Below are positions 11,030 to 43,494 of a DNA stretch of 43,954 bases, piece after piece. Source of the stretch: Burkholderiales bacterium (GTDB taxonomy: Bacteria; Pseudomonadota; Gammaproteobacteria; Burkholderiales; Burkholderiaceae_E). A program made the position numbers and the translations under genes. Position 1 is the stretch's first letter. Each line of letters opens with the position of its first letter. The notes under the pieces are model-generated. The model ran no database searches. It was not told the origin of the DNA and saw only the letters and a list, made by a program, of their open reading frames with translations. Location of the stretch: positions 1-43,954 of the forward strand of contig JAIYAG010000095.1 in assembly GCA_027489195.1 (NCBI GenBank), read 5' to 3'.

Positions 11030-12291
11030 GCGCGACCCCGAGCCCGGCAGCGGCGCACCTGCCGACCGAGCCCCTGCGCCCCGATGCCACCGGCCCGCTG
11101 CAGGGCATCCGGGTGGTGGACCTGTCGCGCCTCGTGGCCGGCAACATGCTCACGCTGCAGCTCGGCGACTTCGGCGCCGACGTCATCAAGGTCGAGGCGG
11201 CGGGGTCCGGCGACACGCTGCGCGAATGGCGCGAGGTCCATGCAGACTTCCCCGAAGGCTTCGACGGCTGGTGGCGCACCTATGCGCGCAACAAGCGCAG
11301 CCTGGCGCTCGACCTGCGCGACGCCGAGGCGATGGGCTGGCTGCGCCGCCTGATCGACACCGCGCAGGTGCTGGTCGAGAGCTTCCGGCCCGGCACGCTC
11401 GAGGCGATGGGTCTGGGGCCCGAGGTCCTGCTGGAGCGCAATCCGCGTCTGGTGGTGGTGCGGCTGTCCGGCTGGGGGCAGAGCGGCCCGTACCGCGAAC
11501 TGCCCGGGTTCGGCAGCCTCATCGAGGGCTTCAGCGGCTTCGCGCACAAGCACCGCAGCGCGAGCGGCGCGCCGCAGCTGCCGAACCTGGCGATGGCCGA
11601 CATGATCACCGGCCTCACCGGCGCCTTCGCCACCCTGGCCGCGCTGCGCGAGGTCGAGGTGAATGGGGCCCGCGGTCAGGTGGTCGACCTGTCGCTGCTG
11701 GAACCGATGCTGGCGGTCATGGGCCCCGACGTGAGCACCTTCGCGGCCACCGGCACGGATGCCGAGCCCGGCCGCAAGATCGCGTCGCCGCGCGGCAGCT
11801 ACCGCTGCAGCGACGGCCTGTGGGTGTCGATGAGCGGCTCGACCGACGTGATGGCGCGCCGCGTGTTCGAGGCCATCGGCCAGGCCGCGCTGTTCGACGA
11901 CCCGCGCTTCGCCACCAATGCCGCGCGGCTCGAGCACGACGACGCGCTCGACGCGATGGTGGCGGGCTTCATCGCCGGCCTCACGCAGGACGCGTGCCTC
12001 GCGCTGTTCCGCCGCCACGGCGTGACCGTCGGCCCCATCTACGCGCCGCCGCAGCTCCTCGCCGACCCGCATATCGCGCAGCGCGGCGTGTACGTGCGCC
12101 TCGACGCCGGCGACGGCGCCGAGCCGACCGTGATGCATCAGGTCGTGCCGCGTCTGCTCGGCACGCCGGGCAGCATCCGGCGCACCGCGCCGTCACGCGG
12201 CGAGCACACGTTCGCGCTGCTGCAGGAGCTCGGAGCCACGCCCGCCGAGTGCGCCGAGCTGCAGCGCCGGGGGGGCATCGAATGCCCATGA
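11026..12291 (+). CDS. CaiB/BaiF family (family III) CoA-transferase
   Basis: GPLQGIRVVDLSRLVAGNMLTLQLGDFGADVIKVE is the typical N-terminus of this family. The start ATG overlaps the Bug stop (ATGA). Confidence 0.9.
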   Translation: MSATPSPAAAHLPTEPLRPDATGPLQGIRVVDLSRLVAGNMLTLQLGDFGADVIKVEAAGSGDTLREWREVHADFPEGFDGWWRTYARNKRSLALDLRDAEAMGWLRRLIDTAQVLVESFRPGTLEAMGLGPEVLLERNPRLVVVRLSGWGQSGPYRELPGFGSLIEGFSGFAHKHRSASGAPQLPNLAMADMITGLTGAFATLAALREVEVNGARGQVVDLSLLEPMLAVMGPDVSTFAATGTDAEPGRKIASPRGSYRCSDGLWVSMSGSTDVMARRVFEAIGQAALFDDPRFATNAARLEHDDALDAMVAGFIAGLTQDACLALFRRHGVTVGPIYAPPQLLADPHIAQRGVYVRLDAGDGAEPTVMHQVVPRLLGTPGSIRRTAPSRGEHTFALLQELGATPAECAELQRRGGIECP

Positions 12292-14481: not shown

Positions 14482-14652
14482 GCCTTGCGCCAAGCCCGAC
14501 ACAATCGCCCCGCACAGCCCGGGCTTTGGGCCGCGACCCGTGCCGCGGCGGCTAGACTCGACCGCTCGCGCGGACCTCGTCTCGAACCCCTCGGGATCGC
14601 GTCCGCGTGGCGCTGCGAGCAGCACCTCCCGTCGCGCACAGCGCTGGCCTCC

Positions 14653-16128
14653 ATGACCGTGCCCCGCCGCTCGAACATCGTGGTGCTGCTGATCGACGAC
14701 CAGTTGATCATCGGCGAGAAGGTGCGCGAGCTGCTCGAGCACGACCCCCACATCGCGTTCCAGCACTGTGCGGACGCCGGCGACGCGATCGAGACGGCCT
14801 CGCGGCTGCAGCCCACGGTCATCCTGCAGGACCTGATGATGCCCGGCGTCGACGGGCTCGAGCTGCTGCGCCAGCTCAAGCGCGCCGACGCAACGCGGGA
14901 GGTGCCGGTCGTCGTGCTGTCGACCAAGGAGGAGCCGGCGATCAAGGCCGAGGCCTTCCGGCTCGGTGCCAACGACTACCTCGTCAAGCTGCCGAGCGCG
15001 GTGGAACTGATCGCGCGGATCCGCTACCACTCCGAGGCCTACCGCAATGCCGCGATGCGTCGTCTGGCCATGCAGGCGCTGATGGAGAGTCGGGAGGAAC
15101 TGCGCAAGAGCCACGAGCAGATCGCCCGACAGGCGGGCGAACTCGAGCTGCGCAACAGCTTCATCAAGAAGACCTTCGGCCGGTACCTGTCGGACGAGGT
15201 GGTGAGCGAACTGCTCGACTCCCCCGAGGGCCTGCGCCTCGGCGGCGAGAGCCGCGTGGTCACGATCATGATGGCCGACCTGCGCGACTTCACGTCCACC
15301 AGCGACCGGCTGCCGGCCACCCAGGTGGTGCAGATGCTCAATGCCTATCTCGGCGCCATGACGCGGGTCATCGCCGAGCATCACGGCACGATCGACGAGT
15401 TCATCGGGGACGCCATCCTGGCCATCTTCGGGGCGCCGCTGTCCCGGGACGACGATGCCCGTCGGGCCGCACGATGCGCGCTGGCCATGCACCAGGCGCT
15501 CGTGGCGGTGAACGAACGCGGTGCGCGCGACGGCCTGCCGATGCTGGAGATGGGCATCGCGCTGCACACCGGCGAGGTGGTGGTCGGCAACATCGGATCC
15601 GACATCCGCGCGAAGTACGGCGTGGTGGGCAGCAACGTCAACCTGACCGCTCGCATCGAGTCGCAGAGTGTCGGCGGCCAGGTCCTGGTGTCCGAAGCGG
15701 CCCGGGCGGCCATCGGCCCGGAGGCCCGGACGGGCCGCGAGCTGCGCTTCCAGGCCAAGGGCTTCCAGCGCGAGCTCGTGGCCTGGGAACTGACGGGGCT
15801 CGACGGCGAGGGCGGCCTGAGCCGTCCGGCCGGCGCCGGTCATCCGATGGCCATGCGCCTGCTCGAGCCGCCGCTGCCGCTGCAGTTCTGGCAGGCGCGT
15901 GGCAAGCGCGTCGACGGGCCGCCGCAGGACGGCTTCCTGGTGCGGGCGGGCGAACAGGCTGGCGCCCTGCGCACGGCGATCGCGCCGCCACCGTTCGCCG
16001 AGCTGAGGATCCTGCTGAAGGCCGGCGCCGATGACGAAGCGCCCCGGGAAGTCTGGGCAAAGGTGGTCGACACCGAGGGCGACGAGACACGGCTGCTGTT
16101 TTCCCGGCATCTGGACGCCCGGGCGTGA
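14653..16128 (+). CDS. Response regulator: REC domain, coiled-coil linker, class III adenylate/guanylate cyclase domain and an uncharacterised C-terminal extension of about 95 aa
   Basis: The REC domain has acidic pocket LLIDDQ, phosphoacceptor VILQDLMMPGVDG, VLST and YLVKLP. The cyclase has metal Asp residues in IMMADLRDFT (D209) and FIGDAILAIFG, plus GSNVNLTARIES. ATG at 14653. Confidence 0.9.
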   Translation: MTVPRRSNIVVLLIDDQLIIGEKVRELLEHDPHIAFQHCADAGDAIETASRLQPTVILQDLMMPGVDGLELLRQLKRADATREVPVVVLSTKEEPAIKAEAFRLGANDYLVKLPSAVELIARIRYHSEAYRNAAMRRLAMQALMESREELRKSHEQIARQAGELELRNSFIKKTFGRYLSDEVVSELLDSPEGLRLGGESRVVTIMMADLRDFTSTSDRLPATQVVQMLNAYLGAMTRVIAEHHGTIDEFIGDAILAIFGAPLSRDDDARRAARCALAMHQALVAVNERGARDGLPMLEMGIALHTGEVVVGNIGSDIRAKYGVVGSNVNLTARIESQSVGGQVLVSEAARAAIGPEARTGRELRFQAKGFQRELVAWELTGLDGEGGLSRPAGAGHPMAMRLLEPPLPLQFWQARGKRVDGPPQDGFLVRAGEQAGALRTAIAPPPFAELRILLKAGADDEAPREVWAKVVDTEGDETRLLFSRHLDARA

Positions 16129-16177
16129 ACCCCTGCTCTACAGTGACGCAACGCACGATCGACGAGGACAGTCGGAC

Positions 16178-17830
16178 ATGGTGATTCGCAATCTCGGCCT
16201 CGAGAAGAAGCTGATGCTGCTGCTGAGCATCTTCTCGCTGGCCTTCTTCGCCTTCGCCTTCGTGTCCTGGCACACCATCGAGACCGTGCGCGTGAACGGT
16301 CCCCTCTACGGGTCCATCGTCGAAGGCAAGGACCTGGTCGCGGACATCCTGCCTCCGCCGGCCTACATCATCGAATCGCACCTGCTCAGCCTGCAGCTGG
16401 TCGAGGAGTCCGACGCCGCGCAGCAGGCCGTGCTGATCGAGCGCGGGAACGCCCTGCGCGTCGAGTTCGACCGGCGCCACGAGTTCTGGAAGCGTGCGCT
16501 GGCGCCCGGCACGCTGGCGGACACGATGAACGTCACCGCCTATCGGCCCGCCGTGGCGTACTTCGAGGCGCGCGAGGCGGAGCTCATTCCCGCGGTCCGG
16601 GCGCGGAACGCGGCACGTGTCCGGGCCGCCATGACGGTGCTCAACCAACGGTACGAAGAGCACCGCAGGGCGATCGACTCGGTGGTCAGGCTGACCAACG
16701 AGCGCAACCTCCAGCTCGAGCAGACGGCCGAGCGGTCGGTGAGCGACGGCCGCCGCAACCTCGTCGTGCTCGGCGGGCTGGTGCTCGCGGTGGTCGCGGT
16801 GCTGGCGTGGCTCACGCTCGTGATGGCCAACTCCCTGAGTGCGCGTCTGTCGCTCGCTGCCGGGGTCGCGTCCCGGGTGGCCGATGGGGATCTCACGGTG
16901 CGGGTGCCGGATGCCAGCGAGTCGGACGAGTCCGGGCGCCTGCTCACGGCCATCCAGGCCATGACCACCAGCCTGCATTCGCTCGTGGCGCGCGTGCGCC
17001 AGGCCTCGAACATGCTCAGCGCCTCGACGGCCGAGTTCACGAAGGCCGGCCGGCAGCAGGACCGCCACATCGGCGGCCTGCGCGACTCCGCGGTGCAGAT
17101 CGCCGGCGGCGCGCGCAGCATCTCCGAGACGAGCGCCGACCTGATGTCCACGATGGAGAGCGTCAATGCGGTGGCCGGCCAGGCCGCGCAGGTCGCCGAG
17201 GGCGGCCGGTCGCTGCTCGAAGGCATGCAGGGCGCCATGCAGCAGCTGCAGCAGGGCACCGTGTCGATCTCCACGCGCTTGGGCGCGATCCGCGAGAAGA
17301 CGTCCGACATCAGCGGCGTCGTCACCACCATCACCAAGATCGCCGATCAGACCAACCTGCTGTCCATCAACGCCGCCATCGAGGCCGAGAAGGCGGGCGA
17401 CCAGGGCCTCGGGTTCATGGTGCTCGCGCGCGAGATCCGTCGCCTGGCCGACCAGACGGCCGCTGCCACGCTCGACATCGAGCAGATGGTGCGGCACATG
17501 CAGTCGGCGGTGTCGGCCGGCGTGATGGAGATGGACGGCTTCGCGGCGCAGGTCGAGCGTGGCGTGGGCGTCACGGCACAGGTCGGCACGCAGCTGGGCC
17601 AGATCATCGGCCAGGTGAAGTCGCTGTCGGAGCGCTTCGATGCGGTGAACCACGGCATGCGCAGCCAGTCGCAGGGCGCGCGCCAGATCAGCGAAGCCAT
17701 GACGCAGCTGATGGCCGGTGCGCAGGCCGGCGCTGACGCCCTGCCCGAGTTCAATGCCTCGATCGCCGGGCTTCGGGACGCGGCCGACTCGCTGACGCAG
17801 GAGATCTCCCGCTTCAAGCTGGGGACCTGA
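16178..17830 (+). CDS. Methyl-accepting chemotaxis protein (two TM segments, helical periplasmic sensor of about 170 aa, HAMP, MA signalling domain)
   Basis: TM1 is LMLLLSIFSLAFFAFAFVSW and TM2 is LVVLGGLVLAVVAVLAWLTLV. A HAMP domain follows, and the signalling hairpin tip reads QTNLLSINAAIEAEKAGDQGLGFMVLAREIRRLADQT. It lies 49 nt downstream of the REC-cyclase. Confidence 0.92.
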   Translation: MVIRNLGLEKKLMLLLSIFSLAFFAFAFVSWHTIETVRVNGPLYGSIVEGKDLVADILPPPAYIIESHLLSLQLVEESDAAQQAVLIERGNALRVEFDRRHEFWKRALAPGTLADTMNVTAYRPAVAYFEAREAELIPAVRARNAARVRAAMTVLNQRYEEHRRAIDSVVRLTNERNLQLEQTAERSVSDGRRNLVVLGGLVLAVVAVLAWLTLVMANSLSARLSLAAGVASRVADGDLTVRVPDASESDESGRLLTAIQAMTTSLHSLVARVRQASNMLSASTAEFTKAGRQQDRHIGGLRDSAVQIAGGARSISETSADLMSTMESVNAVAGQAAQVAEGGRSLLEGMQGAMQQLQQGTVSISTRLGAIREKTSDISGVVTTITKIADQTNLLSINAAIEAEKAGDQGLGFMVLAREIRRLADQTAAATLDIEQMVRHMQSAVSAGVMEMDGFAAQVERGVGVTAQVGTQLGQIIGQVKSLSERFDAVNHGMRSQSQGARQISEAMTQLMAGAQAGADALPEFNASIAGLRDAADSLTQEISRFKLGT

Positions 17831-17831
17831 G

Positions 17832-18347
17832 TTGGTCCGGGAACACGCCGCGCCGCGCGCGCTGATGGTCGTGCTGACCGTGGCCGGGCAGCGCCATGCG
17901 CTGAATGCCGCCGGGGTCGTGGAGGTGCTGCCCTGGCTGCCCGTGGCGCCTCTGGCGCTGGCACCGCCGGCCGTCGTGGGCGTGATCGACTACCGCGGCA
18001 CCGTCGTGCCGGTGGTGGACCTGTGCCGGCTGCTGGCGGGCCGCGACGCTCGGCGATGGCTCGCGAGCCGGATGGCGGTCGTCCAGGTCGGGCCGCCGAC
18101 GCGGCACCGCCTGGTGGCGCTGCTGGCGGAGGGCTGCACGCTGACGAGACTGGACACGGCATCGGCGCAGCCGGGGCTGCACCGGCCGGATGCACCCTTC
18201 CTGGGCCCGTTGCTGAACGACGCGGATGGCCTGCTGCAGAGCATCGACCCCGAGCGGCTGCTCGGCGCCGAGATCATCGACGCATTGCTGAGCGCGCCGG
18301 CGGACCTGCCGCCGGAGCCGCTGTCGGCGCGGGCCCATGGACGCTGA
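17832..18347 (+). CDS. cheW: CheW-like coupling protein
   Basis: The CheW fold signature is VVLTVAGQRHALNAAGVVEVLPW...VVGVIDYRGTVVPVVDL. The TTG at 17832 lies 1 nt after the MCP stop; an in-frame ATG at 17865 is an alternative. Confidence 0.85.
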   Translation: MVREHAAPRALMVVLTVAGQRHALNAAGVVEVLPWLPVAPLALAPPAVVGVIDYRGTVVPVVDLCRLLAGRDARRWLASRMAVVQVGPPTRHRLVALLAEGCTLTRLDTASAQPGLHRPDAPFLGPLLNDADGLLQSIDPERLLGAEIIDALLSAPADLPPEPLSARAHGR

Positions 18348-18984
18348 GGCCTGCTGGCGCACCATCGGCGTCGGGGGTGACCGAAGCTGCCCCGAGCTGA
18401 TCCGCCTCGTGCACTGCCGCGAGTGCCCGGTGCTCGGGCAGGCCGCCGAGCGCCTGCGCGAGCGCGACGTGCCGGACGGCTACGCCGAGGCCGCGGCCCG
18501 GGCGGCGGCCTCGAAGTACGAACCCCGCCGGAACGACCCGACGCTTCTGGTGTTCCGTCTGGGCACGGAGTGGCTGGCGCTGCAGACCGCCTGCGTCGAG
18601 GAGATCGCAGCGATGCGACCGATCCATCGGGTCGCGCACCGGGGCGGGCTGGTGGCGGGCCTCGCGAACGTGCGCGGACAGCTGCTGCTGACCGTGCGGC
18701 TGGGCGAGCTGCTGGCATTGCCGCCCGCCCCCTCGCGCCGGCTGGGCGAGCCCGCCGCCCGGCTGGTCGTGATGTCGCACGGCGCGCAGACCTGGGCCTT
18801 TGCCGCCGACGAGGTCGAAGGCGTGGTCGCCCTGGCCCTGGGCGAGCAGGCGCCGCCGCCGGCCACCCTGCCCGCCGCGCTCGCGGCCGTCACCCGTGGC
18901 ACGGTGCCCTGGCGAGACCGGCGCGTCACGCTGCTGGACACGGTGCCCCTGTTCGAGCTGCTCCAGCGCGGCATGACACCGTGA
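18337..18984 (+). CDS. cheW: CheW domain protein with an N-terminal four-cysteine extension
   Basis: The N-terminus is MDAEACWRTIGVGGDRSCPELIRLVHCRECPV (C6, C18, C27, C30). The CheW domain follows: LLVFRLGTEWLALQTACVEEI...GLANVRGQLLLTVRL. It overlaps the preceding cheW by 11 nt. Confidence 0.88.
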   Translation: MDAEACWRTIGVGGDRSCPELIRLVHCRECPVLGQAAERLRERDVPDGYAEAAARAAASKYEPRRNDPTLLVFRLGTEWLALQTACVEEIAAMRPIHRVAHRGGLVAGLANVRGQLLLTVRLGELLALPPAPSRRLGEPAARLVVMSHGAQTWAFAADEVEGVVALALGEQAPPPATLPAALAAVTRGTVPWRDRRVTLLDTVPLFELLQRGMTP

Positions 18985-21587
18985 GCGCGCTCGACGCCCT
19001 GTTCCGCGACGAGGTCGAGCAGCGGGCACCGGTGCTGCGCGACGGCCTGCGGCGCTGCGAACACTCGGCGCCCGACGGCGAGATGCTGTTCGCCGCGCAG
19101 GCGCTGAAGGGCGCGGCCCGGGTGATGGGGGTACGCAAGGCCGAGCGGCTGGCCGACGCCCTGGAGCTCCTGCTGGGGGCCTCGGAGACCGCGGCCGGGC
19201 CGATGGGCGCCGCCCAGCTGCAGGCCTGTGCGGATGCGCTCGAGCTGATCGAGGCCATCGCCCAGTCGGGGGCCGCCCGGGCCGACGAGGTGGCCACGGA
19301 CGCGCAGCTCGCCGATCTGCTGGATCGCCTGGCCGTGCCGGCGGTGTCCGCGGCGGTGACGCGCCCGGTCCGGCAACGGGCACCGCTGACGGCCGCGACC
19401 CTCGAGCTCTTCAGGCAGGAATGCGAGCAGCATTCCAGAGTCATGGGCGAGGGCCTCCTGTCGCTGGAGCGTTCGCCCGACCAGCCCGAGCTGCTGGACC
19501 GGCTGATGAGGGCGTCGCACTCCGCCAAGGGCGCTGCGAGGGCCGTGGGCCTGGACAGCACCGTCGCCCTCGCGCATGCGGCCGAAGACCAGCTCGAGCG
19601 CGCCCGGCGCCGACAGATCCTCGTCGGCCCCGACCTCGTGGACGCGCTGCTGGCCGCGAGCGACCTGATCCAGCGCACCGGCATCGCGGTGTCGACCGGC
19701 ACCGACCTGCCGGCCGACGACGCGGTGCTGGCCTGCGCCAGCCGCATCGTGCAGGCCGGCCAGGCCTGCATGATCCATCCGACCTTCGAGTCCGGCGGCG
19801 GCGAGTCCGGCCTGGCCGACGCGGCCCCGTCATCGCGACAGGCGGTCGAGGAGGAGCGGGTCGTGCGCATCCGCGCCACGCAGCTCTCGCGGCTGGTGGC
19901 CCTGGCGGGCGAACTGGTCGTCGAGAGCAGCCGGCAAGGCCTGCTGGCGGCGGCCCAGCAGCGCATGCGTCTGCAGCAGTCCGGCATCGCGGACCTGCTG
20001 GACGAGCTGCAGCAGTCGATGGCGACCCTGCCGGGCGGTCATGCGCTGCGCAGCCGGATGGAAGCCCTGCGGCTGCGGCTGAGCGATCTGCGCCGGAGCA
20101 ACGTGGCCTGGTCGGAGGACTTCGAGCAGCACGCGCAGCGCAAGGAGGACCTCAGCCTGCGCCTGTACCGCGAGGCGCTGGACAGCCGCCTGCAGCCCCT
20201 GGCCGACGGGCTGGGCGCGTTTCCGCGGCTGGTGCGCGACATCGCCCGGCGGCTCGGCAAGCAGGCCGAGCTGACGGTCAGCGGCGAGACGCACCGCATC
20301 GACCGCGACATCCTCGAGCGCATCGAGGCGCCGCTCAACCATCTGATCCGCAACGCCCTCGACCATGGCCTGGAACGGCCCGCCCTGCGGCGTGAACGGG
20401 GCAAGCCCGAGCAGGGCCGCGTGGCGATCGATGCGCGCGTCGTCTCGGGCCTGCTGGAGATCTCGGTCAGTGACGACGGTGCCGGGATCGACATCGACAA
20501 GGTCCGTGCGCGGGTGGCCGAAAAGGGCCTCGAGACGCCCGAGGCGGCACAGGCCCTGCCGGTCGACCGGCTGCTCGACCACCTGTTCGTGTCGGGCTTC
20601 TCGACAGCGGATCAGGTGACCGAGATCTCCGGCCGCGGGGTCGGCCTCGCCGTGGTGCGCAGCGTGATGCGCGACGTCAGCGGCTCGGTCAGCCTGCACA
20701 CCCGAGCCGGTCAGGGGGTGCGCTTCGAGCTGCGGGTGCCGATCAGCCGCTCGGTGCTGCGTGCGGTCGTCGTCTCCATCGCGGGGGAGCCGCACGCCTT
20801 CGCGCTCACGCGGGTTGACCGCCTGGTGCGGCTGTCCGTCGCCGATGTGCTGACCGCGGGCAACCGGCAGTACGTCGTCCTGGACGGGCGGACCGTGTCA
20901 CTCGTCTGGGCGTCCGAACTGCTGGAGCTGGGGCCGTCCAACCCCTCGGCCCGCCAGCTCGACGTGGTCGTGGTCAGCGACTTCGGCCAGAGCGTCGGCT
21001 TCATCGTGGATGCCGTGCTGAGCGAACAGGACATGGTGCTGCAGGCGCTCGATCCCCGCCTGGGTCGGGTACCCGACATCAGCGCCGCAGCCGTGCTGCC
21101 CGACGGTCGACCGGTGCTGGTGCTCGATGCCGAGGACATGGTGCGCTCGGTGCTGCGCACCCCGGAGGCGCAGACGTCGCAGCACGATGCGCGCAGCCCC
21201 GTGCCGACGCGACGGGCGCTGCGCGTGCTGGTGGCGGACGACACGGCGACGATCCGGGAGATGGAGCGCGAGCTGCTGGTGCGCGCGGGCTACGAGGTCG
21301 TCACCGCGGCCGACGGCATGGAGGCGTGGCAACAGCTGCACAGCACGGACGTCGATCTCGTGATGACCGACGTCGACATGCCGCGCCTGGACGGCATCGG
21401 GCTGATCCGCTCGATCCGCCAGGACGCGCGGCTGCAGCGCCTGCCGGTGATCGTGCTGTCGTACCGGGCCTCGGCGAACGACCGTCAGCAGGGACTGGAT
21501 GCCGGGGCCTCGGCGTACATGACGAAGGCCGACTACGACGACACCCATCTGCTGGACACCGTGGCGCGGCTCATCGGCCGCCCCTGA
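18981..21587 (+). CDS. cheA: CheA-like hybrid histidine kinase: two Hpt domains, dimerisation region, HATPase, CheW-like P5 domain and C-terminal REC (WspE-like architecture)
   Basis: The GTG at 18981 overlaps the upstream stop (GTGA). Hpt-1 is degenerate, reading AAQALKGAARVMG with Gln40 where His is expected. Hpt-2 is canonical, RASHSAKGAARAVG (His180). The ATPase boxes are HLIRNALDHG, DDGAGID and GRGVGLAVV. The P5 domain reads VVSIAGEPHAFALTRVDRL and the REC reads RVLVADD...LVMTDVDMPRLDG. Confidence 0.92.
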   Translation: MSALDALFRDEVEQRAPVLRDGLRRCEHSAPDGEMLFAAQALKGAARVMGVRKAERLADALELLLGASETAAGPMGAAQLQACADALELIEAIAQSGAARADEVATDAQLADLLDRLAVPAVSAAVTRPVRQRAPLTAATLELFRQECEQHSRVMGEGLLSLERSPDQPELLDRLMRASHSAKGAARAVGLDSTVALAHAAEDQLERARRRQILVGPDLVDALLAASDLIQRTGIAVSTGTDLPADDAVLACASRIVQAGQACMIHPTFESGGGESGLADAAPSSRQAVEEERVVRIRATQLSRLVALAGELVVESSRQGLLAAAQQRMRLQQSGIADLLDELQQSMATLPGGHALRSRMEALRLRLSDLRRSNVAWSEDFEQHAQRKEDLSLRLYREALDSRLQPLADGLGAFPRLVRDIARRLGKQAELTVSGETHRIDRDILERIEAPLNHLIRNALDHGLERPALRRERGKPEQGRVAIDARVVSGLLEISVSDDGAGIDIDKVRARVAEKGLETPEAAQALPVDRLLDHLFVSGFSTADQVTEISGRGVGLAVVRSVMRDVSGSVSLHTRAGQGVRFELRVPISRSVLRAVVVSIAGEPHAFALTRVDRLVRLSVADVLTAGNRQYVVLDGRTVSLVWASELLELGPSNPSARQLDVVVVSDFGQSVGFIVDAVLSEQDMVLQALDPRLGRVPDISAAAVLPDGRPVLVLDAEDMVRSVLRTPEAQTSQHDARSPVPTRRALRVLVADDTATIREMERELLVRAGYEVVTAADGMEAWQQLHSTDVDLVMTDVDMPRLDGIGLIRSIRQDARLQRLPVIVLSYRASANDRQQGLDAGASAYMTKADYDDTHLLDTVARLIGRP

Positions 21588-21588
21588 C

Positions 21589-23802
21589 TCAGAGGTCGGC
21601 GTCCTTGAGCAGCAGCGTCGCGGCGATCAGGCGCTCCGACACGATGCGAGCGAGGGCACGGTGCAGCGTCGCGGCATCGGCGGGCACGTCGGTGTCGAGC
21701 TGCGCCAGGCGGTCGCCACCGAGCACGAGGACGGTGCTGTCCTGCGTGGCCGTCACCGTCGCACTGCGCTCGCGTCGCGAATAGAAGCCGACCTCGCCGA
21801 GCAGCGTCCCCGGCAGCAGCCGGTTGAGCGTGGATTCGCCCCCGGTGACCTGAGCGACCGACACCTCGAGCTGCCCGCTGACCAGCACCATGATGCTGTC
21901 GGACGCATCGCCTTCGCGCATCACCGTCTGGCCCGCGCGGAACTCGCGCCGCTCGCCGTGCCGCTGCAGGACGGCGAGCACATCGTCGTCGCCCTGGCGC
22001 GGCATCGTCCGGCGGGCGGCCGCGGACTCGGCGAGCGTGCGTTCCTCGATGGCGGCCAGCAGCGTGTCGAGATCCCCCTCGACCTGCAGACCCGACGACT
22101 GCAGGGCCGCGATCTGGCGACCGAACTGCTGCCGCAGGGGCGCCGAGAGTCCGGTCAGGACCAGTTCGACCGACTGCTCCGCGCAGCGCCGCGCGAGGAG
22201 TCCGAAGGCCTCCCAGGCCGACAGGTCGAGCCCGACGATGCGCTTCATGTCCACGATGACGATGCGGGGTGGCGTCTCGCTCTGCAGGCTCGCCTGCAGC
22301 CGGCTCAGCAGACGTCGGGTGGTGCCGAAGAACAGGAATCCGGTCAGCGAATAGATGTGGACCCGGTCGCCCAGGCCGCTCAGCACGGCGCGCTCCTGCG
22401 GGCTGCGCTCGACCCGCGCCTTGAGGTGGGCCGCGGTCGTGAAGAGGCGCACGACGTCGATGCGCGCGTAGACGACCACGAACAGCAGGCAGGCCGCCAC
22501 CGCGCCCAGCGCCAGGGCCGGCAGCACGCCCAGCGTCACCGCGACGATCGGGATCGCCAGCACGAGGGCCTTGTCGCGGTGCGGGATGCGCCGACCGAAG
22601 TCCCAGAGCGCGGCCAGCAGCAGGTCGAACCCGAGGTACCACAGCACGCCGGCCACCAGGCCACGGGGCAGGTCCGACAGCACGTCGGCGCCCAGCGTGA
22701 TGCACAGGGCGCTCATGCCGACGATCGCCAGCCCGGCCGCGACGTCCGGCATGCCGACCCGCCTGGCCAGACTCGTCATGCTGACCATGTGATAGCCGGG
22801 CAGTCCGCCGACCAGCCCGGCGGTGGCGTTGGCGACACCGAGCGTCCTGAGCGCACCGTCGAGGTCCGCTTCGCGGCCGCTCAGCTGTTCCAGGCTGATG
22901 ACGTTGAGCAGCGCGCCCAGCAGGCACAGGCCGGCGACCGCCAGCATCATCGGAACGGCGGACCACAGCGCCGGCCAGGACACGTCCTGGAGACCCACGG
23001 TGCCCGAGCTCTGCAGCAGCGAGTCGTAGGGGAACGGACCCAGCAGCCAGCCCCGCGCGCGCGCCGTGTCGAGATCCAGCCCGAAGACGCCGAGGCCGAG
23101 ATAGAACGACCCGGCCGCCAGCGCGAAGGACAGCGGCACCAGCAGGCCGTTGCTCGAGCGTCGCACGACGAACGACAGCGCCAGCCCCAGCACGCACCAG
23201 GGCAGCCACTGCGGCCAACGTGTCGCGATGTCCGAGGGTGACCGGAAGGACACGTCGGCCATCACGATCGTGAACGCCTCACGGACCAGCAGCAGGCCGC
23301 TCGCGGCGAGGAAACCCGCGGTGACCTGGCGCGGCAGGTAGCGGACGACGAACGAGAGCTTCAGGTGACCGATGGCGTAGGCCGTCACGCCGGCCAGCAC
23401 GGTCGACAGGCCGATCATCACCACCGCGGTGGCGAACGCCGCCTCCGCGGCGAGGCCGGCGTCCGCGATCATCGCTCCGGCTGCGGTCGCCAGCAGGACG
23501 GCGGTCACGTCCTGGGGCTGGACGATGACGGCCCGACAGCTCTTCGAGACGACGGCGACCATCGCCATGATCAAGGCGCCGACCAGCACCAGCCCGATGC
23601 CGAGACTCAGGGAGGGCGCGAGCGCACCCGAGAAGACCAGCGTCGCCTTGGAGACGGTGAAGATGACCGTCATCGTCCCGATGATCAGTCCCGCCAGCAG
23701 CGACCTCACCCCCAAGGCCAGCTGGCCGACAGCACCCTGCAACGACGACTCCCCCGTCCGGCGCTCGTGCTTAGGCACGATCAGTGCGCGCGACGGTATC
23801 AC
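21589..23802 (-). CDS. SulP/SLC26-family anion transporter fused to STAS and a C-terminal cyclic-nucleotide-binding (CNB) domain
   Basis: A polytopic membrane domain is followed by STAS (VHIYSLTGFLFFGTTRRLL...IVIVDMKRIVGLDLSA). The CNB domain reads REFRAGQTVMREGDASDSIMVLVSGQLEV...LLGEVGFYSRRERSATVTA, a phosphate-binding cassette with Glu and Arg. The stop lies 1 nt from the cheA stop. Confidence 0.88.
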   Translation of the reverse strand: MIPSRALIVPKHERRTGESSLQGAVGQLALGVRSLLAGLIIGTMTVIFTVSKATLVFSGALAPSLSLGIGLVLVGALIMAMVAVVSKSCRAVIVQPQDVTAVLLATAAGAMIADAGLAAEAAFATAVVMIGLSTVLAGVTAYAIGHLKLSFVVRYLPRQVTAGFLAASGLLLVREAFTIVMADVSFRSPSDIATRWPQWLPWCVLGLALSFVVRRSSNGLLVPLSFALAAGSFYLGLGVFGLDLDTARARGWLLGPFPYDSLLQSSGTVGLQDVSWPALWSAVPMMLAVAGLCLLGALLNVISLEQLSGREADLDGALRTLGVANATAGLVGGLPGYHMVSMTSLARRVGMPDVAAGLAIVGMSALCITLGADVLSDLPRGLVAGVLWYLGFDLLLAALWDFGRRIPHRDKALVLAIPIVAVTLGVLPALALGAVAACLLFVVVYARIDVVRLFTTAAHLKARVERSPQERAVLSGLGDRVHIYSLTGFLFFGTTRRLLSRLQASLQSETPPRIVIVDMKRIVGLDLSAWEAFGLLARRCAEQSVELVLTGLSAPLRQQFGRQIAALQSSGLQVEGDLDTLLAAIEERTLAESAAARRTMPRQGDDDVLAVLQRHGERREFRAGQTVMREGDASDSIMVLVSGQLEVSVAQVTGGESTLNRLLPGTLLGEVGFYSRRERSATVTATQDSTVLVLGGDRLAQLDTDVPADAATLHRALARIVSERLIAATLLLKDADL

Positions 23803-23824: not shown

Positions 23825-26149
23825 TCACTCGCCGGTCATGCCGACGTCGGTCGAATACGACGCGGCACTCGGCTGATCCGTCAGGGGGCGCTTGGCGGCG
23901 GCACGAGAGACCCAGTGCGTCAGGTCACCGGTCAGTCCGCGCACGCGGTCCGACAGGTGCAGCGCCATGTTCTTCAGCAGCAGCGCGGCCACGTCGGGGT
24001 GATCCCGCAGCAGCTGGTCGAACGCGGTCGTCGGCAGGAAGCAGGCGGTGACATCGGATTCCGCGACCGCTTCCGCGGACCGGGTCTCGTGGCTCAGCAC
24101 GGCGATCTCGCCGATCGTCACGCCGGCCGCGAACGAGGCGAGGCGCCGCGAGCTTCCCGGAAGCCGCAGGCCCACCTCGCCCCGCGTCACGACGTACAGG
24201 CCGTCGCCGGGATCACCCAATCGGAAGATCACCGTGTCGCGCGGGACGTGCAGCACCTGCATCGCGGCCTCGACCACCGCACGGCTGCTCGGCGTCAGGC
24301 CGCGCATGAGCGAGGTCTCCGCGAGCGGGATCGCCTCGTCCGAACGGACCTGCAGTCCCAGCCGCTCGATCAGCCTGTCCTCCGCGTGCTCCAGGGCCCG
24401 GTCGACGTCGTCGGAGAAGTGCAGCGGGTGGGCGCTGCCGGGGTCGACCATCGCTTCCAGCAGCTGTCGCCGACTGTCGTCCACGGGCCATTCCGCGAAC
24501 ACCAGCCGCCGTCCGCGTCGTGCCCAGTCGTCCGCCACTTCGGTCAGGATGCGCGCGGCCGTGATGTCGATGTCCTGAACCTGGCGCAGGTCGAGGATGG
24601 CCGTGCCGACCGTGTCCGGAAGCTGCTGCAGCCGGCTCTGCAGGGCATCGGCCGTGCCGAAGAACAGCGAGCCCTCGAGTTCGAAGAGCGCGATCCGTCG
24701 CCCTTCGCGGCGCAACGTGTCGCGCACCTGCGCCGGACGCACCTTGAGGGATCCCCGGGATTCGCCGGTCGACTGGTGGCGCACCACGTCGCGCATGTTG
24801 GCGCGCACGAACAGCAGCACCGCGCAGGAGGCGCCGATCAGGACCGCCGCGCTCAGGCCCCAGATCAGCGCGCTCAGCGCCACGGCCACCGTGACGGCCC
24901 AGTTGCCCACCAGCGCACGGGCCTCGCCTCGGGACGGGTCGGCGTGACCCTGCCTCAGGCGCAGCAGGCCCTTGGGGGCGCGCAGCAGGGCGGGCGCCAC
25001 CATCTGGGCGCCCTGCAGGACCAGCAGGCCGCCGAGGGCGCTTTCCGGAAGGACCCCCAGCCACTGCTGCCCCGCCACCAGCACGAGCAGCATCGCCAGC
25101 GCATAGAACAGCGCCACGTTCCGGACCTCCGGCTGCGGCGGAACCAGTGCGAGGGTGCGTGCGGCCGAGGGCGACGCGGCATGCCCGCCGCACAGCGCCG
25201 TCGCGATGTTCGCCACCCCCTGCGCCACGAGTTCCCGGTCGGCGCTTCGCCGCAGCCTCAGGCGGCCGTCGATGATGGACGTGGTGATCAGCGTGTCCAT
25301 GCTGCACAGCAAGGCCAGCGTGACCGCATACACCGCCAGCAGGGTGCCGGTCTTGAAGTCCACGTGCTCGACGACGCCGCTCACCGCCTGGATCAGCAGA
25401 CCCGCCTCGAACGTCGGCAGCTGCGGCACCCCCAGGGTACGGCCCCAGACCGCGACGCCGCCGTGGCTCAGGAGCACCTCGTGCAGCGCGGTGGCGGCGA
25501 TCATGCCCAGCAGCACCGGAGGCACCCGCGGCACGTGGCGGGCCACCAGCCAGCAGGTGGCGAGGGCACATGTGCCCACGGCTGCGGCCCCCCAGTCGGG
25601 GACCAGGCCGCCGGCCAGCAGCGAGGTGCCGAAGCGGTGGCCGAGCATCACGGGAAGCGCGGTGATCAGCAGCAGCAGGCCGATGCCGCCGGTCAGGCCG
25701 AGCCGAACCGGGTACGGGGTGAACTTGACCAGGTTGCCCAGACCCAGCCATCCGAACAGGCATTGCAGCAGGCCGGCGCCGACCAGGGCCAGCGCGATGC
25801 TGACCAGCACCTGCAGGACGCCCAGGTCGCCCTCGGCGACCGGGCTGTCGACGAGATTCGCCACCAGGCCCGCCGTCAGCAGTGCCAGCGACGAGCGCGG
25901 CCCGCTGGCCAGTCGCCCGCCGCCCAGCACATGGGCCACCGTGTTGGCCACCACCGCGCCCAGGATGGCCAGCGCCATCGCCGTGGGCCCGAACGCCAGA
26001 CCCAGCGGCGCCATGGCCATCAGCCCGTAGGCCGCGTTCTCGGGGACATGGGCCAGGGCCGCCGACACGGTCACGGCCGCGCGGGACGCCCAGCCGCGAG
26101 CCTGATCCAGACGGGGCGGCCGAGCCGGCACGTCGACCGATCCGCTCAT
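23825..26149 (-). CDS. SulP/SLC26-family anion transporter fused to STAS and a C-terminal cyclic-nucleotide-binding domain (paralogue)
   Basis: The SulP core contains AAYGLMAMAPLGL...GPRSSLALLTAGLV and related segments. STAS reads IALFELEGSLFFGTADAL...AILDLRQVQDIDITAA. The CNB domain reads LHVPRDTVIFRLGDPGDGLYVVTRGEVGL...TIGEIAVLSHETRSAEAVA. The start ATG overlaps the cyclase stop (ATGA, 26146-26149). Confidence 0.9.
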   Translation of the reverse strand: MSGSVDVPARPPRLDQARGWASRAAVTVSAALAHVPENAAYGLMAMAPLGLAFGPTAMALAILGAVVANTVAHVLGGGRLASGPRSSLALLTAGLVANLVDSPVAEGDLGVLQVLVSIALALVGAGLLQCLFGWLGLGNLVKFTPYPVRLGLTGGIGLLLLITALPVMLGHRFGTSLLAGGLVPDWGAAAVGTCALATCWLVARHVPRVPPVLLGMIAATALHEVLLSHGGVAVWGRTLGVPQLPTFEAGLLIQAVSGVVEHVDFKTGTLLAVYAVTLALLCSMDTLITTSIIDGRLRLRRSADRELVAQGVANIATALCGGHAASPSAARTLALVPPQPEVRNVALFYALAMLLVLVAGQQWLGVLPESALGGLLVLQGAQMVAPALLRAPKGLLRLRQGHADPSRGEARALVGNWAVTVAVALSALIWGLSAAVLIGASCAVLLFVRANMRDVVRHQSTGESRGSLKVRPAQVRDTLRREGRRIALFELEGSLFFGTADALQSRLQQLPDTVGTAILDLRQVQDIDITAARILTEVADDWARRGRRLVFAEWPVDDSRRQLLEAMVDPGSAHPLHFSDDVDRALEHAEDRLIERLGLQVRSDEAIPLAETSLMRGLTPSSRAVVEAAMQVLHVPRDTVIFRLGDPGDGLYVVTRGEVGLRLPGSSRRLASFAAGVTIGEIAVLSHETRSAEAVAESDVTACFLPTTAFDQLLRDHPDVAALLLKNMALHLSDRVRGLTGDLTHWVSRAAAKRPLTDQPSAASYSTDVGMTGE

Positions 26150-28002
26150 GGGGTCGACGGCCGGAGCGCGCCGACCCAGACCTCTTCGAGCGCAGCGCGG
26201 CCGCGCAGCTGCTGCGGCTCGAGTCTCACGAGGCCCCGCTGTCCGGCCCAGCGACGGGCGTGCGGCGTGGCCGCGACGAAGGCGCCCGACAGCGCCAGCG
26301 AGGCGTCGCGGGCGCGCGCGCTGTCCTGCAGGCGGCTGGCGGTGTTCACCACGTCACCGCTGACGGCCACGCGGCGATGCCGATCGCCACCCAGCACCCC
26401 CAGCTGCACCGGCCCCGCATGGGCGCTGAACCGCAGGCCGAGCCCCGGCCAGTCCGCAGACGCGAGCACCGCGGCGTCGAGCTGCTCGATGAACCGCAGG
26501 GCCTGTCCGACATCGTCCGCGCCGGGCTCGGGCACGCCGAAGACGACCAGCGCACCGTCGCCCGCGAAGTCGGCGATCATGCCGCCGCAGCGGTCCGCGG
26601 CCTGCTCCACCTGTCGCGTGAATGCGGCCAGGAACGCGTAGGTGCGCGCCGGGCCCGAGCGCTCGGCATGGGGCGTGAACCCGACGACATCGACGAACAC
26701 CACGACCGCGGGCAGAGGCGGCCGATCCCGCAGGGGGTCGGCGTCCGTGGCGAGGGTCTCCACCAGCGCCGGCGACTGGTACCGGGCGAGGTTGGTGGCG
26801 CGGCGCCGCTGCTGGAAGCGCTGGGCGGCGGCACTCGCTCCCGCGCCGAGCGCCAGGCACATCGCCACCGTCGTCGCGTCGAGCCACCAGCCCGCCGAGA
26901 ACGCGGCCTGCAGCGCCGCCGCCATCGCCAGCGCCGCGCCGGCGGTGGCCACCGTGGCGACGAGGGGGCCGTTCAGCCCGGCGGCCGCACACCCCGCGAC
27001 GGCAGCGAGCAGGCCCAGCAGGACACTGGCGCCCCAGGCCACGCCGTCACGGCGCAGCGGACGCCCCGTCAGGAGATTGGCCGCGAAGGTGGCATGCACC
27101 TCGACACCCGGCATCGTCGCGTCGAACGGCGTCGCGTGACGGTCGCCGAAGCCGGTGGCCGTCGCGCCCACGAAGACGATCTTCCCGCGCAGGTCCGCCT
27201 GCGACACGGACGCCGCGGAATAGGTCGGGATCGACCCTGCCGGGCCGTAGTAGTCCAGGGGCACCGTGCCGCGCAGGTCCAGCGGGACCGAGACCGGCCC
27301 GATCTCGAGACGGCCGCCCACGCCGCTGGGGGGGATCGACACCCGGGTCGGTCCGGCCTGGGCCGACACCGCGGCCACCGCCAGTCCGGGCAGGGTCACG
27401 AGGCCGTTCGAGCTCGCCACCGACAGGACCGGGCGCAGGCGGCGCAGCACACCGTCCGGCCCGTGTTCCACCGTCACGTGCGCCAGGTCGGCCGCCTCCT
27501 GCAGCACCGGGTCCGGCCCCATCGCGGGGAGCGGTGCCTGCGGCTCGGGCCCCGTGACCAGGCTCGGTCCACCGCGCTGGCGCAGCGTCACGAGTGATGC
27601 ACCCGACGCGGCTTCGGCGACACCGAGGATGGCCATCCCCCGGGCGAGCGCGGCGGCCAGGACCGCGTCGTCGGGTCGCGGGTCGATCAGCAGGACATCC
27701 AGTGCCAGCACCCGTGCGCCCGCCTGCCACGCGCCGGACACGACCTCGCTCAGCGCCGTGCGGGAGGGCGGGAAGGTGGCCGGGCGCTCGATCGCGGCGT
27801 CGTCGAACGCGACGATCGCGACCTGCTGCGGCGCGGGCAGCGGCCCCCGCACGAGGAACCTCGCGTCCAGCAGGCGGCCTTCGATGCCCTGCCAGAAGGC
27901 GCCGCGCTCGCCGGGATGCCACAGGCCCAGCGCCAGCGCGCCCAGCACGACCCCGGCCATCACCCCCAGCCGCTCCAGCCGGACACGACGCCCAGGACTC
28001 AC
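26146..28002 (-). CDS. CHASE2 sensor domain, TM segments and class III adenylate/guanylate cyclase
   Basis: After the N-terminal TM segment comes a CHASE2-like region (FWQGIEGRLLDARFLVRG...VAIVAFDD...LALDVLL). Three to four TM segments follow, then the cyclase: VVVFVDVVGFT, FAGDGALVVFG and VSGDVVNTASRLQD. The GTG at 28002 overlaps the FecR stop (GTGA). Confidence 0.9.
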   Translation of the reverse strand: MSPGRRVRLERLGVMAGVVLGALALGLWHPGERGAFWQGIEGRLLDARFLVRGPLPAPQQVAIVAFDDAAIERPATFPPSRTALSEVVSGAWQAGARVLALDVLLIDPRPDDAVLAAALARGMAILGVAEAASGASLVTLRQRGGPSLVTGPEPQAPLPAMGPDPVLQEAADLAHVTVEHGPDGVLRRLRPVLSVASSNGLVTLPGLAVAAVSAQAGPTRVSIPPSGVGGRLEIGPVSVPLDLRGTVPLDYYGPAGSIPTYSAASVSQADLRGKIVFVGATATGFGDRHATPFDATMPGVEVHATFAANLLTGRPLRRDGVAWGASVLLGLLAAVAGCAAAGLNGPLVATVATAGAALAMAAALQAAFSAGWWLDATTVAMCLALGAGASAAAQRFQQRRRATNLARYQSPALVETLATDADPLRDRPPLPAVVVFVDVVGFTPHAERSGPARTYAFLAAFTRQVEQAADRCGGMIADFAGDGALVVFGVPEPGADDVGQALRFIEQLDAAVLASADWPGLGLRFSAHAGPVQLGVLGGDRHRRVAVSGDVVNTASRLQDSARARDASLALSGAFVAATPHARRWAGQRGLVRLEPQQLRGRAALEEVWVGALRPSTP

Positions 28003-28613
28003 CAGTCGGCGCCGAGCAGTTCACCGAAACGGGCGATGCGCGGAGGTCTCCACTGAACCACCGGCTTGAGTGCGCCGGTATCCGACACATCGACGCCATC
28101 ACCCGGGCCCAGGGTCGCCGTGCCGCCGTCGGCCGACACGGTGACGGTCCCCTCGCGGGTGAAGACCTCGCTGACGCCATTGGCCCAGCGCATCGCCCAT
28201 TCCGTGGACCGGACCGCGGCCACGGCCGAGGGCGTCCGGACCTGCACGCCGCCGCTGCCCTTGAAGACGAAGCCCGCGATGCCCTCGAGCAGCCGCAGAC
28301 CGAACGGCTGCGAGCCTGCGGCCAGCACGCTCTCGACCGTGATGGCGCTGTCGGGGCCGACGACCACCTTGAGGCCGCCGGCGCAGCCCAGGCTGACGCG
28401 CGACGCCGGCTGCGTCCGGACGGTGTCGCTGGCGGCGAGGGTCTGACCCATCTGCGCGGCGAGTGGCGCGGCACCGCCCGCCGAGACCGTCACCGTGCCT
28501 TCGATCCGCTGGATCAGGCAGCCCCCGGAGGGCTGGGCCGAGGCGGGGGCAGGGGCGGCGAGCGTGAGCGCCGCCGCCACTGCGATGCCGGCCTGGCGAC
28601 GTGCGTGGATCAT
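27999..28613 (-). CDS. Periplasmic FecR-domain protein
   Basis: The signal peptide is RRQAGIAVAAALTLAAPAPASA. A beta-rich FecR-like region follows: GTVTVSAGG...GQTLAASDTVRTQPASRVSL...VRTPSAVAAVRSTEWAM...EGTVTVSADG. Confidence 0.8.
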   Translation of the reverse strand: MIHARRQAGIAVAAALTLAAPAPASAQPSGGCLIQRIEGTVTVSAGGAAPLAAQMGQTLAASDTVRTQPASRVSLGCAGGLKVVVGPDSAITVESVLAAGSQPFGLRLLEGIAGFVFKGSGGVQVRTPSAVAAVRSTEWAMRWANGVSEVFTREGTVTVSADGGTATLGPGDGVDVSDTGALKPVVQWRPPRIARFGELLGADW

Positions 28614-30711: not shown

Positions 30712-30761
30712 GGAGCGGATCCTGGGTGGTCGACGCAACCGGACGTTGTAGCTGCAGTTCG

Positions 30762-30779
30762 ATGACACGCCGATGACAG
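30762..30779 (-). promoter_or_regulatory. Pho box (PhoB-binding site) upstream of phoX
   Basis: The minus strand reads CTGTCAT-CGGC-GTGTCAT. These are two 7-bp direct repeats separated by 4 bp and match the CTGTCAT-N4-CTGTCAT consensus at 13 of 14 repeat positions. The site lies 51-68 nt upstream of the proposed start. Confidence 0.6.
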
Positions 30780-32856: not shown

Positions 32857-33109
32857 GCGGGCGCTCGCCGGCGGCGTGCAGGCGGAGCAAGGGTACGGCC
32901 CACCGAGACGACATCCGCCAAGCTTGACCATGAACGGCGTAGGCCGGCAGCTCGGACTGACGTGTCTGCAGCAGCCGTCTCCGTTCGCGGGCCTTCAGGG
33001 AGACCGTGCCAATCGAAGGCACAATCCAGACGAACTCGCATCTTCCACCTTGGCTGGCTCGCGACGGAGCCGCTGGCTGAAGCGTGTCACTCATCAAGGG
33101 ACATCGCGC

Positions 33110-38575: not shown

Positions 38576-38611
38576 CGCCTTGCTCCGCTCGTCGTCGAGC
38601 GAAAACATGCG

Positions 38612-42844: not shown

Positions 42845-43039
42845 ATGCGGACCAACATCGTGATCGACGACAAGCTGATGGCGGCCACGCTGAAGGCGAC
42901 CGGACTCAAGACCAAGCGGGAGGCCGTGGAGCAGGGGCTGCGGACCCTGCTGCGGCTCAAGCAGCAGACCGAACTGCGCAAGCTTCGCGGCAAGTACGAA
43001 TGGGAGGGTGATCTGGACGCCATGAGGCGCGACCGGTGA
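42845..43039 (+). CDS. vapB: Type II antitoxin VapB (RHH-like, MRTNIVIDD class)
   Basis: MRTNIVIDDKLMAATLKATGLKTKREAVEQGLRTLLRL is a typical VapB/DUF2191-type antitoxin N-terminus. The stop overlaps the vapC start. Confidence 0.88.
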   Translation: MRTNIVIDDKLMAATLKATGLKTKREAVEQGLRTLLRLKQQTELRKLRGKYEWEGDLDAMRRDR

Positions 43040-43437: not shown

Positions 43438-43494
43438 CGAGGCGCAACGCTTCCGGGCCCCACGCCTGTTAACCGCTTCGTTACCATAGGCGTC

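Follow-up and report, generated by a model that had tools for sequence, protein, structure and literature searches.

A candidate Cya2-type guanylate cyclase as the predicted effector of a Wsp-like chemosensory operon in a Burkholderiales bacterium

Which cyclic nucleotide is made by a response regulator with a class III nucleotide cyclase as its output, and what might the signal serve when the regulator is encoded in a chemosensory operon? These questions are raised by a stretch of 43,954 nucleotides from a Burkholderiales bacterium (assembly GCA_027489195.1, contig JAIYAG010000095.1), referred to at its full length as the window, in which a gene for a receiver (REC) domain joined to a cyclase domain, the REC-cyclase gene, heads a chemosensory operon and lies near two genes for SulP-type transporters with cyclic nucleoside monophosphate (cNMP) binding domains (Table 1). 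To our knowledge few bacterial guanylate cyclases have been characterized, the roles of cyclic guanosine monophosphate (cGMP) in bacteria are largely unknown, and Cya2 is the one bacterial guanylate cyclase that has been structurally solved. A first-pass annotation, made by eye from the DNA letters, proposed that the REC-cyclase is a candidate bacterial guanylate cyclase because it carries a Glu/Gly pair at the substrate-specifying positions. The comparisons reported here support that proposal as a prediction, and they make it reasonably probable, if well short of certain, that the gene encodes a phosphorylation-controlled guanylate cyclase of the Cya2 type acting as the effector of a Wsp-like chemosensory pathway. 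The standing of the protein as a candidate guanylate cyclase is well supported by sequence comparison; the substrate preference itself is a prediction.

The active site and its predicted substrate

The open reading frame (ORF) of the REC-cyclase spans positions 14485 to 16128 on the forward strand, and the ATG at 14653 is its most plausible start, yielding a protein of 491 amino acids. A protein identical over these 491 residues is present in public data under the name adenylate/guanylate cyclase domain-containing response regulator, from Burkholderiales. Pfam recognizes a Response_reg domain at residues 11 to 124 and a Guanylate_cyc domain at residues 202 to 354 (85.7 bits, E 3.8e-24); the gathering cut-off of the latter family, PF00211, is 21.9 bits, and a score above this cut-off and the many class III structures matched by Foldseek place the domain in class III. 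When residues 195 to 385 were compared with all Protein Data Bank (PDB) sequences by phmmer, the best match was Cya2 itself (2w01), which aligned over 191 residues without a gap at 50% identity (E 2.8e-54). The second best match was 6fht, an engineered phytochrome-Cya2 fusion whose chain has Lys at the Glu488 site, as 6fht is the E488K adenylate cyclase variant (PMC5995499). Cya2 is the closest solved relative by a wide margin, scoring 188 bits against 101 bits for the top adenylate cyclase, with CyaC and CyaB at E values of about 1e-27. The AlphaFold2 model of the REC-cyclase (mean predicted local distance difference test score, pLDDT, 84) superposes on 2w01 with a root mean square deviation (rmsd) of 1.0 Å and template modeling (TM) scores of 0.95 to 0.97.

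A constant offset of 239 relates the two proteins, so that D209, R211, E249 and D253 correspond to Cya2 D448, R450, E488 and D492, and G323, N330, R334 and K369 correspond to Cya2 G562, N569, R573 and K608. The residues that contact metal (D209 and D253), phosphate (R211 and K369) and the transition state (N330 and R334) are all equal to those of Cya2, for which the full active-site list, Glu488 and Gly562 included, is given in Table 1 of PMC6005667. The by-eye alignment of the first-pass annotation, which had put Glu249 at the purine-selecting Lys position and Gly323 at the Asp/Thr position, is borne out by the ungapped alignment and by the modeled structure, in which neither Lys nor Asp/Thr stands at these sites; the two metal-binding Asp residues and the Asn/Arg pair that it named are also present, with the codons as claimed. 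It had stated, correctly, that Cya2 carries Glu/Gly (PMC4215837, PMC6005667). K321 matches the Lys of the Cya2 'KYG' motif and is a candidate supporting Lys for E249.

Conservation of these positions was assessed in the 120 highest-ranking homologs out of more than 7,500 and, separately, in 86 loci from species-representative genomes of Acidobacteriota, Desulfobacterota, Myxococcota, Zetaproteobacteria, Alphaproteobacteria, Leptospiraceae, cyanobacteria and others. The scan of species-representative genomes gave no relatives above 58% identity. The E249/G323 pair is E/G in 111 of the 120 homologs, whose six catalytic residues are invariant apart from K369 (118/120), and 78 of the 86 loci combine Glu249 and Lys321 with Gly or Ala at position 323; the pair is thus not a chance feature. 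The first-pass annotation had described cGMP signaling as rare in bacteria, which is true of the characterized cases but not of the sequences, since the Cya2-like clade is widespread among environmental bacteria.

Six close relatives (P0006, P0007, P0009, P0013, P0017 and P0023; 63 to 72% identical) depart from this pattern by having K249 and S323, and in exactly those six K321 is replaced by Glu. The six group as a single clade, sister to that of the window protein and nested among E/K/G sequences, with extra changes clustered around the pocket at positions 207, 251, 256, 320 and 325. The clade sits in the same REC-cyclase operon (loci L086 and L087); a search there for neighbors with cNMP domains met an unrelated gene upstream and contigs that break off within cheA. 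Judged from these substitutions, the clade appears to be a natural specificity switch from a guanylate cyclase to an adenylate cyclase type with a charge swap, which suggests that functional selection acts on the pocket positions and that residues 249 and 321 form an interacting pair, in agreement with the supporting Lys described for Cya2 (PMC6005667). The natural change from Glu/Lys/Gly to Lys/Glu/Ser offers a ready test case for the specificity rules of class III cyclases.

Several observations weigh against a cGMP product. At the position of Cya2 Tyr572 the protein has Ala333 ('NLTARIES' against 'NLTYRIES' in Cya2); this position is Ala, Ser or Gly in all 120 homologs and never Tyr, which among the 86 loci occurs only in two cyanobacterial ones, L016 and L025. 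According to the account of Rauch et al. (2008) given in PMC4215837, Tyr572 greatly enhances the guanylate cyclase activity of Cya2 and not its adenylate cyclase activity. In Ma1120, an unrelated adenylate cyclase scaffold, the K101E/D157G change raises guanylate cyclase activity about five-fold, yet ATP is still preferred until A167Y is added. The absence of Tyr572 and the Ma1120 result make an active enzyme of dual or ATP-preferring specificity the main rival: here Glu/Gly without the Tyr, which shapes the guanine pocket of Cya2, would be insufficient for a preference for guanosine triphosphate (GTP), and the signal would be cyclic AMP (cAMP) or both nucleotides. The neighboring cNMP domains point the same way, as their 'RSA' cassette resembles that of cAMP-binding CRP and in the PDB they match cAMP-binding proteins best, although base preference is not readable from sequence. 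This rival is nonetheless considered rather unlikely. The scaffold is that of Cya2 and not of an adenylate cyclase; Cya2 prefers GTP, and since E488K alone converts it into an adenylate cyclase (PMC5995499), the Glu is decisive in this scaffold. Glu at the purine-selecting position has been described in guanylate cyclases only, according to the alignment summary in PMC4215837, and a preference for ATP in the Glu form would leave the change to Lys with compensating K321E in the sister clade less easily accounted for.

A second difficulty lies in the loop beside the first metal-binding Asp, where the nearly invariant D-L-R-G-F-T reads DLRDFT in the window protein. Gly is found at position 212 in 117 of the 120 homologs, and Asp only in P0001 to P0003 and their cluster members, which make up the immediate clade of the window protein. 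This could mean that the cyclase domain of that clade is catalytically impaired and that the part of the protein in the Che-like pathway is that of a phospho-sink or a scaffold. Within the clade, at 82 to 83% overall identity, every catalytic and specificity residue other than G212 is kept, and the cNMP-binding genes are still adjacent. The retained active site is best read as a sign of continued purifying selection, and because the rest of the site is conserved in the G212D clade, inactivation is rated unlikely, clearly more so than an altered nucleotide preference. Some active class III cyclases have a residue other than Gly at this position. The earlier description of the domain as catalytically competent therefore stands as far as the catalytic residues go, all of which are there, but it overlooked both G212D and the missing Tyr that boosts guanylate cyclase activity.

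A third reading, that the product is another nucleotide such as cCMP or cUMP, as for the Pycsar cyclases, is thought very improbable. PADLOC models of the Pycsar cyclase PycC do match the domain (best 85 bits), and genes for Apyc1-like metallo-beta-lactamases follow the cyclase gene in five distant relatives. The PycC match reflects generic class III likeness, however, and lies far below the Cya2 score; the base-contacting residues are those of Cya2; and the gene belongs to a chemosensory operon rather than to a two-gene defense module with an adjacent Pycsar effector gene. Assignment as a Pycsar pyrimidine cyclase was rejected, there being no adjacent effector of the PycTM or PycTIR type and the neighbors being Che proteins and transporters.

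The receiver, the stalk and the C-terminal domain

The phospho-acceptor set of the receiver (D15, D16, D60, S90 and K112) is invariant in the homolog alignment, and residues 4 to 182 match WspR over its receiver and helical stalk (3bre, E 2.4e-45), with 57% identity in the receiver alone. Pfam matched no GGDEF domain in the protein, the output domain being Guanylate_cyc. Between the stalk and the catalytic domain lies the motif FGRY (F175, G176, R177 and Y178), all four residues of which are invariant in the alignment; FGRY is the cyclase transducer element (CTE) motif of Cya2 and other class III cyclases (PMC5995499).

The C-terminal domain provides a further link to Cya2. Modeled alone, residues 402 to 483 (pLDDT 91) gave top PDB matches in Foldseek that are mostly PilZ domains (4xrn, BcsA, Alg44, YcgR and MapZ), with TM scores of 0.6 to 0.7 and E values of about 2e-3, and Pfam matched PilZ in six of 20 family members. 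In a comparison by hhalign the domain is homologous to the 118-residue extension of Cya2 (the C-terminus of P0398), with a probability of 98.4% and an E value of 5.8e-15. That extension has been called 'structurally uncharacterized' and 'important for stimulating cyclase activity' by Etzl et al. (PMC5995499), and a PilZ fold for it is relevant to optogenetic tools based on Cya2. A profile of the domain matched 1,394 representative proteins; in nearly all the matches listed it lies at the C-terminal end or within about 100 residues of it, and in ten of ten sampled matches it directly follows a class III cyclase domain. The sensors in these ten are varied (HAMP-PAS, REC, HisKA-REC, 4HB-HAMP, GAF and kinase-STAND-GAF), the comparison being one of domain order, with the residues at the Glu/Gly sites outside it.

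Binding to c-di-GMP (cyclic dimeric guanosine monophosphate) by the PilZ-like domain was considered and, in its canonical form, rejected. The window protein has neither the RxxxR nor the [D/N]xSxxG motif, and since none of the 118 family members has the two in order, canonical binding is unlikely. Judged by its sequence, the REC-cyclase is a WspR-type input joined to a complete Cya2 effector cassette, made up of FGRY, the catalytic domain and a homolog of the C-terminal extension.

The chemosensory operon and its neighbors

The REC-cyclase gene is the first in a tightly packed operon of five genes (14653-21587), a scan of which for promoters and terminators was uninformative. The same five genes, for the REC-cyclase, chemoreceptor, two CheW-like proteins and CheA-REC, recur in relatives that are 83% and 74% identical. 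In distant relatives (44 to 58% identical) the cyclase gene follows cheB in operons with the order MCP-CheW-CheR-CheW-CheA/REC-CheB, where MCP is the methyl-accepting chemoreceptor; this is exactly the Wsp order with wspR replaced. It counts against the proposed Wsp-like guanylate cyclase pathway that genes for CheR and CheB were not found anywhere in the window; both are present at the loci of relatives L004, L005, L010, L012, L021, L022 and L025. By analogy with Wsp, the pathway is taken to be a non-motility chemosensory one that would work like Wsp, yet it is not a WspR system.

Directly after the REC-cyclase gene, five of the distant relatives carry a gene for an Apyc1-like metallo-beta-lactamase (L005, positions 11511-12269, and L010, L011, L019 and L024). 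The Pfam family is named for an anti-Pycsar protein that degrades cyclic nucleotides. In the protein P0267 a metallo-beta-lactamase domain is fused to HisKA-REC-cyclase-PilZ.

Convergent to the che operon lie the two SulP-STAS-cNMP genes in tandem, and next to them a gene for a second class III cyclase and a FecR-domain gene. The phosphate-binding cassette GE...RSA is intact in all four of the cNMP domains. A SulP-STAS-cNMP gene adjoins the REC-cyclase operon in each of the three loci of the window's clade with enough sequence, the other neighbors being different. At locus L001, from the relative with 74% identity, a gene for a glutaminase fused to a cNMP-binding domain (16995-18851, reverse strand) lies convergent to the operon's end, suggesting that the same messenger has a target in metabolism. 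The window has a third SulP-STAS gene (35853-37712, reverse strand), at a distance of 10 kb, that is without a cNMP domain.

The second cyclase has a CHASE2 sensor, which is the sensor type of Cya2, and is encoded at 26146-28002 on the reverse strand together with 27999-28613 on the same strand; it has Asp and Ala at the specificity positions. Among 120 homologs of this protein the first position is Asp, His, Gln, Gly or Ser (Lys in four) and the second is Ser, Thr or Ala, with the catalytic residues kept, and its substrate is not predictable from these residues. A FecR-domain gene precedes it in three of three loci, those of the window and of two relatives. Both SulP-cNMP genes run in the same direction as this CHASE2-linked cyclase, which might be their real partner, and this too tells against a link to the REC-cyclase. 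In the relatives of the CHASE2-cyclase FecR is kept and SulP-cNMP neighbors were not found, whereas the REC-cyclase operons of the window's clade keep the transporters; the SulP-cNMP transporters therefore travel with the REC-cyclase module. The evidence from relatives thus weighs against the CHASE2-cyclase as the partner, although such a pairing may still hold in this window.

The route that these genes would make up can be set out as a prediction. The chemoreceptor would modulate CheA, which would phosphorylate D60 of the REC-cyclase, and the stalk and CTE would relay this phosphorylation to the cyclase homodimer, which would convert GTP into 3',5'-cGMP; a chemoreceptor signal would in this way probably be turned into cGMP. 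The cGMP would then bind the C-terminal cNMP domains of the adjacent SulP/STAS transporters and change anion transport, and in the distant relatives the Apyc1-like metallo-beta-lactamase beside the cyclase might degrade the signal. The family context, with cNMP-binding neighbors and putative cNMP phosphodiesterases, fits a cyclic mononucleotide pathway. The whole chain, including an action of cGMP on the SulP transporters, is put forward tentatively, with clearly less confidence than the guanylate cyclase assignment on its own.

Other genes of the window include a PhoX alkaline phosphatase gene (28801-30768, reverse strand), a gene 11 kb downstream for a large hybrid sensor kinase that combines multiple PAS domains with HisKA, HATPase and a receiver (32876-35824, forward strand), a CorA Mg2+ transporter gene (37604-38608, reverse strand), and a PIN-domain gene, after which comes a TetR regulator gene truncated by the end of the window (43012-43953, forward strand).

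Table 1. Features of the REC-cyclase gene and of its neighbors, by position in the window
Feature	Position	Strand	Basis or remark
REC-cyclase gene, 491 amino acids	14653..16128	+	ORF and codons; receiver, stalk, CTE, class III cyclase, PilZ-fold C-terminal domain
Receiver domain, residues 9-124	14677..15024	+	Pfam; WspR likeness
Phospho-acceptor D60 (GAC)	14830-14832	+	Receiver
Long helical stalk (residues 116-174) and cyclase transducer element FGRY (residues 175-178)	14998..15237	+	AlphaFold2 helix 116-174; WspR stalk alignment
Class III catalytic domain, Cya2-type, residues 199-385	15247..15807	+	Ungapped match to 2w01; Foldseek
D209 (GAC), metal-binding Asp	15277-15279	+
D212, Gly-to-Asp change in DLRGFT loop	15286..15288	+	Only in immediate clade of window protein
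E249 (GAG), in TIDEFIGDA	15397-15399	+	Purine-selecting Lys position; Cya2 Glu488 ('TIDEFMGD')
D253 (GAC), metal-binding Asp	15409-15411	+
K321-Y322-G323, in AKYGVVGSNVN; G323 (GGC) at 15619-15621	15613..15621	+	Gly at Asp/Thr position; Cya2 Gly562 ('KYGVVGAQVN')
N330 (AAC), transition-state Asn	15640-15642	+
A333, at Cya2 Tyr572 position	15649..15651	+	Alignment with Cya2
R334 (CGC), transition-state Arg	15652-15654	+
PilZ-fold beta-barrel, residues 402-483	15856..16101	+	AlphaFold2; homologous to Cya2 C-terminal extension
Methyl-accepting chemoreceptor (HAMP and MCP signaling domain), 550 amino acids	16178..17830	+	Pfam; start from 550-residue orthologs and upstream GAGGA
CheW-like coupling protein 1	17832..18347	+	Pfam CheW, E 2.5e-18
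CheW-like coupling protein 2	18337..18984	+	Pfam CheW, E 1.2e-22; also in orthologous operons
Hybrid CheA (Hpt, HATPase_c, CheW, C-terminal REC), 868 amino acids	18981..21587	+	Pfam; GTG start overlaps CheW2 stop; orthologs 868-871 amino acids
SulP-STAS anion transporter with C-terminal cNMP-binding domain, candidate receptor	21589..23802	-	Pfam; GE...RSA cassette intact
Second SulP-STAS-cNMP-binding transporter	23825..26149	-	Pfam; phosphate-binding cassette intact

Comparison with known systems

Regulators of this general kind have been listed before. In the literature searched, nothing specific was found on a chemosensory pathway with cGMP as its output except a 2012 census (PMC3447774), which lists REC-mononucleotidyl-cyclase regulators in Che clusters of the ACF type. 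These are alike in being multidomain response regulators with a class III cyclase output, encoded in gene clusters with cheR-TPR, but the census gives the domain combination only, with no substrate prediction, link to Cya2, C-terminal domain or candidate receptors. Within the literature covered, which left Rauch 2008 and Ryu 2015 outside, no paper was found that gives a characterization of a regulator of this kind, relates one to Cya2, says what the C-terminal domain is or puts forward cNMP-gated SulP transporters as targets, and none specific to cNMP-regulated bacterial SulP or SulP-STAS-cNMP transporters was found.

If the enzyme makes cGMP, three things that were previously unlinked would be joined, namely a Wsp-like chemoreceptor array, a Cya2-type guanylate cyclase and SulP/SLC26 transporters with cNMP domains. 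The cassette occurs in many phyla, including the cultured Mariprofundus ferrooxydans PV-1, Desulfonema ishimotonii and Iningainema tapete, which would offer tractable systems for the study of bacterial cGMP. A wider proposal can be entertained, if at present as a conjecture of the same tentative standing as the transporter chain: a large, phylum-spanning class of Wsp-type pathways may have 3',5'-cGMP instead of c-di-GMP as its output, the Burkholderiales form may directly gate SLC26/SulP transporters through their cNMP domains, and the PilZ-fold domain may be a built-in activator module that gives the Cya2 extension its identity.

In Rhodospirillum centenum (Gcy and CgrA) and Xanthomonas campestris (XC_0250 and XC_0249), cGMP from a class III cyclase is read by cNMP-binding proteins encoded nearby (PMC8042644, PMC4681086), which is the likeness to the window. 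Compared by description, neither of these systems has a response regulator as its cyclase, and cGMP is received there by a regulator of the CRP type or by a cNMP-GGDEF protein, whereas the candidate receptors here are SulP/STAS transporters. The parallel drawn in the first-pass annotation with cGMP and the Che3 pathway of R. centenum holds as an analogy only, since here the cyclase is itself the response regulator of the Che pathway.

WspR (PA3702) and the Wsp system of Pseudomonas resemble the window system in the receiver, in the helical stalk and in the partners, which comprise a chemoreceptor, two CheW-like proteins and a hybrid CheA-REC. They differ in that the output here is a class III mononucleotide cyclase with a PilZ-fold domain and not GGDEF, with cGMP and not c-di-GMP as the predicted product; in addition, the regulator gene of the window is first in its operon, which is without CheR and CheB genes as far as the window extends.

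With Cya2 of Synechocystis sp. PCC 6803 (sll0646) the whole effector cassette is held in common, that is FGRY, the catalytic domain and an extension of about 100 to 118 amino acids, as are Glu488/Gly562, the Lys of 'KYG', both metal-binding Asp residues, Arg450, Asn569/Arg573 and Lys608. Cya2 may represent a subgroup of bacterial guanylate cyclases (PMC6005667), and, Tyr572 apart, all the sequence features tested appear to place the cassette described here in the Cya2-type group. The sensor of Cya2 is an extracellular CHASE2 domain with membrane helices, where the REC-cyclase has a soluble WspR-type receiver and stalk; Cya2 Tyr572 is replaced by Ala and Cya2 Gly451 (of DLRGFT) by Asp; and the genomic setting, a chemosensory operon, is a further difference from Cya2. 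What is new in the window is thus a combination of known kinds, with no surprise in kind: an input like that of WspR set before an effector like that of Cya2.

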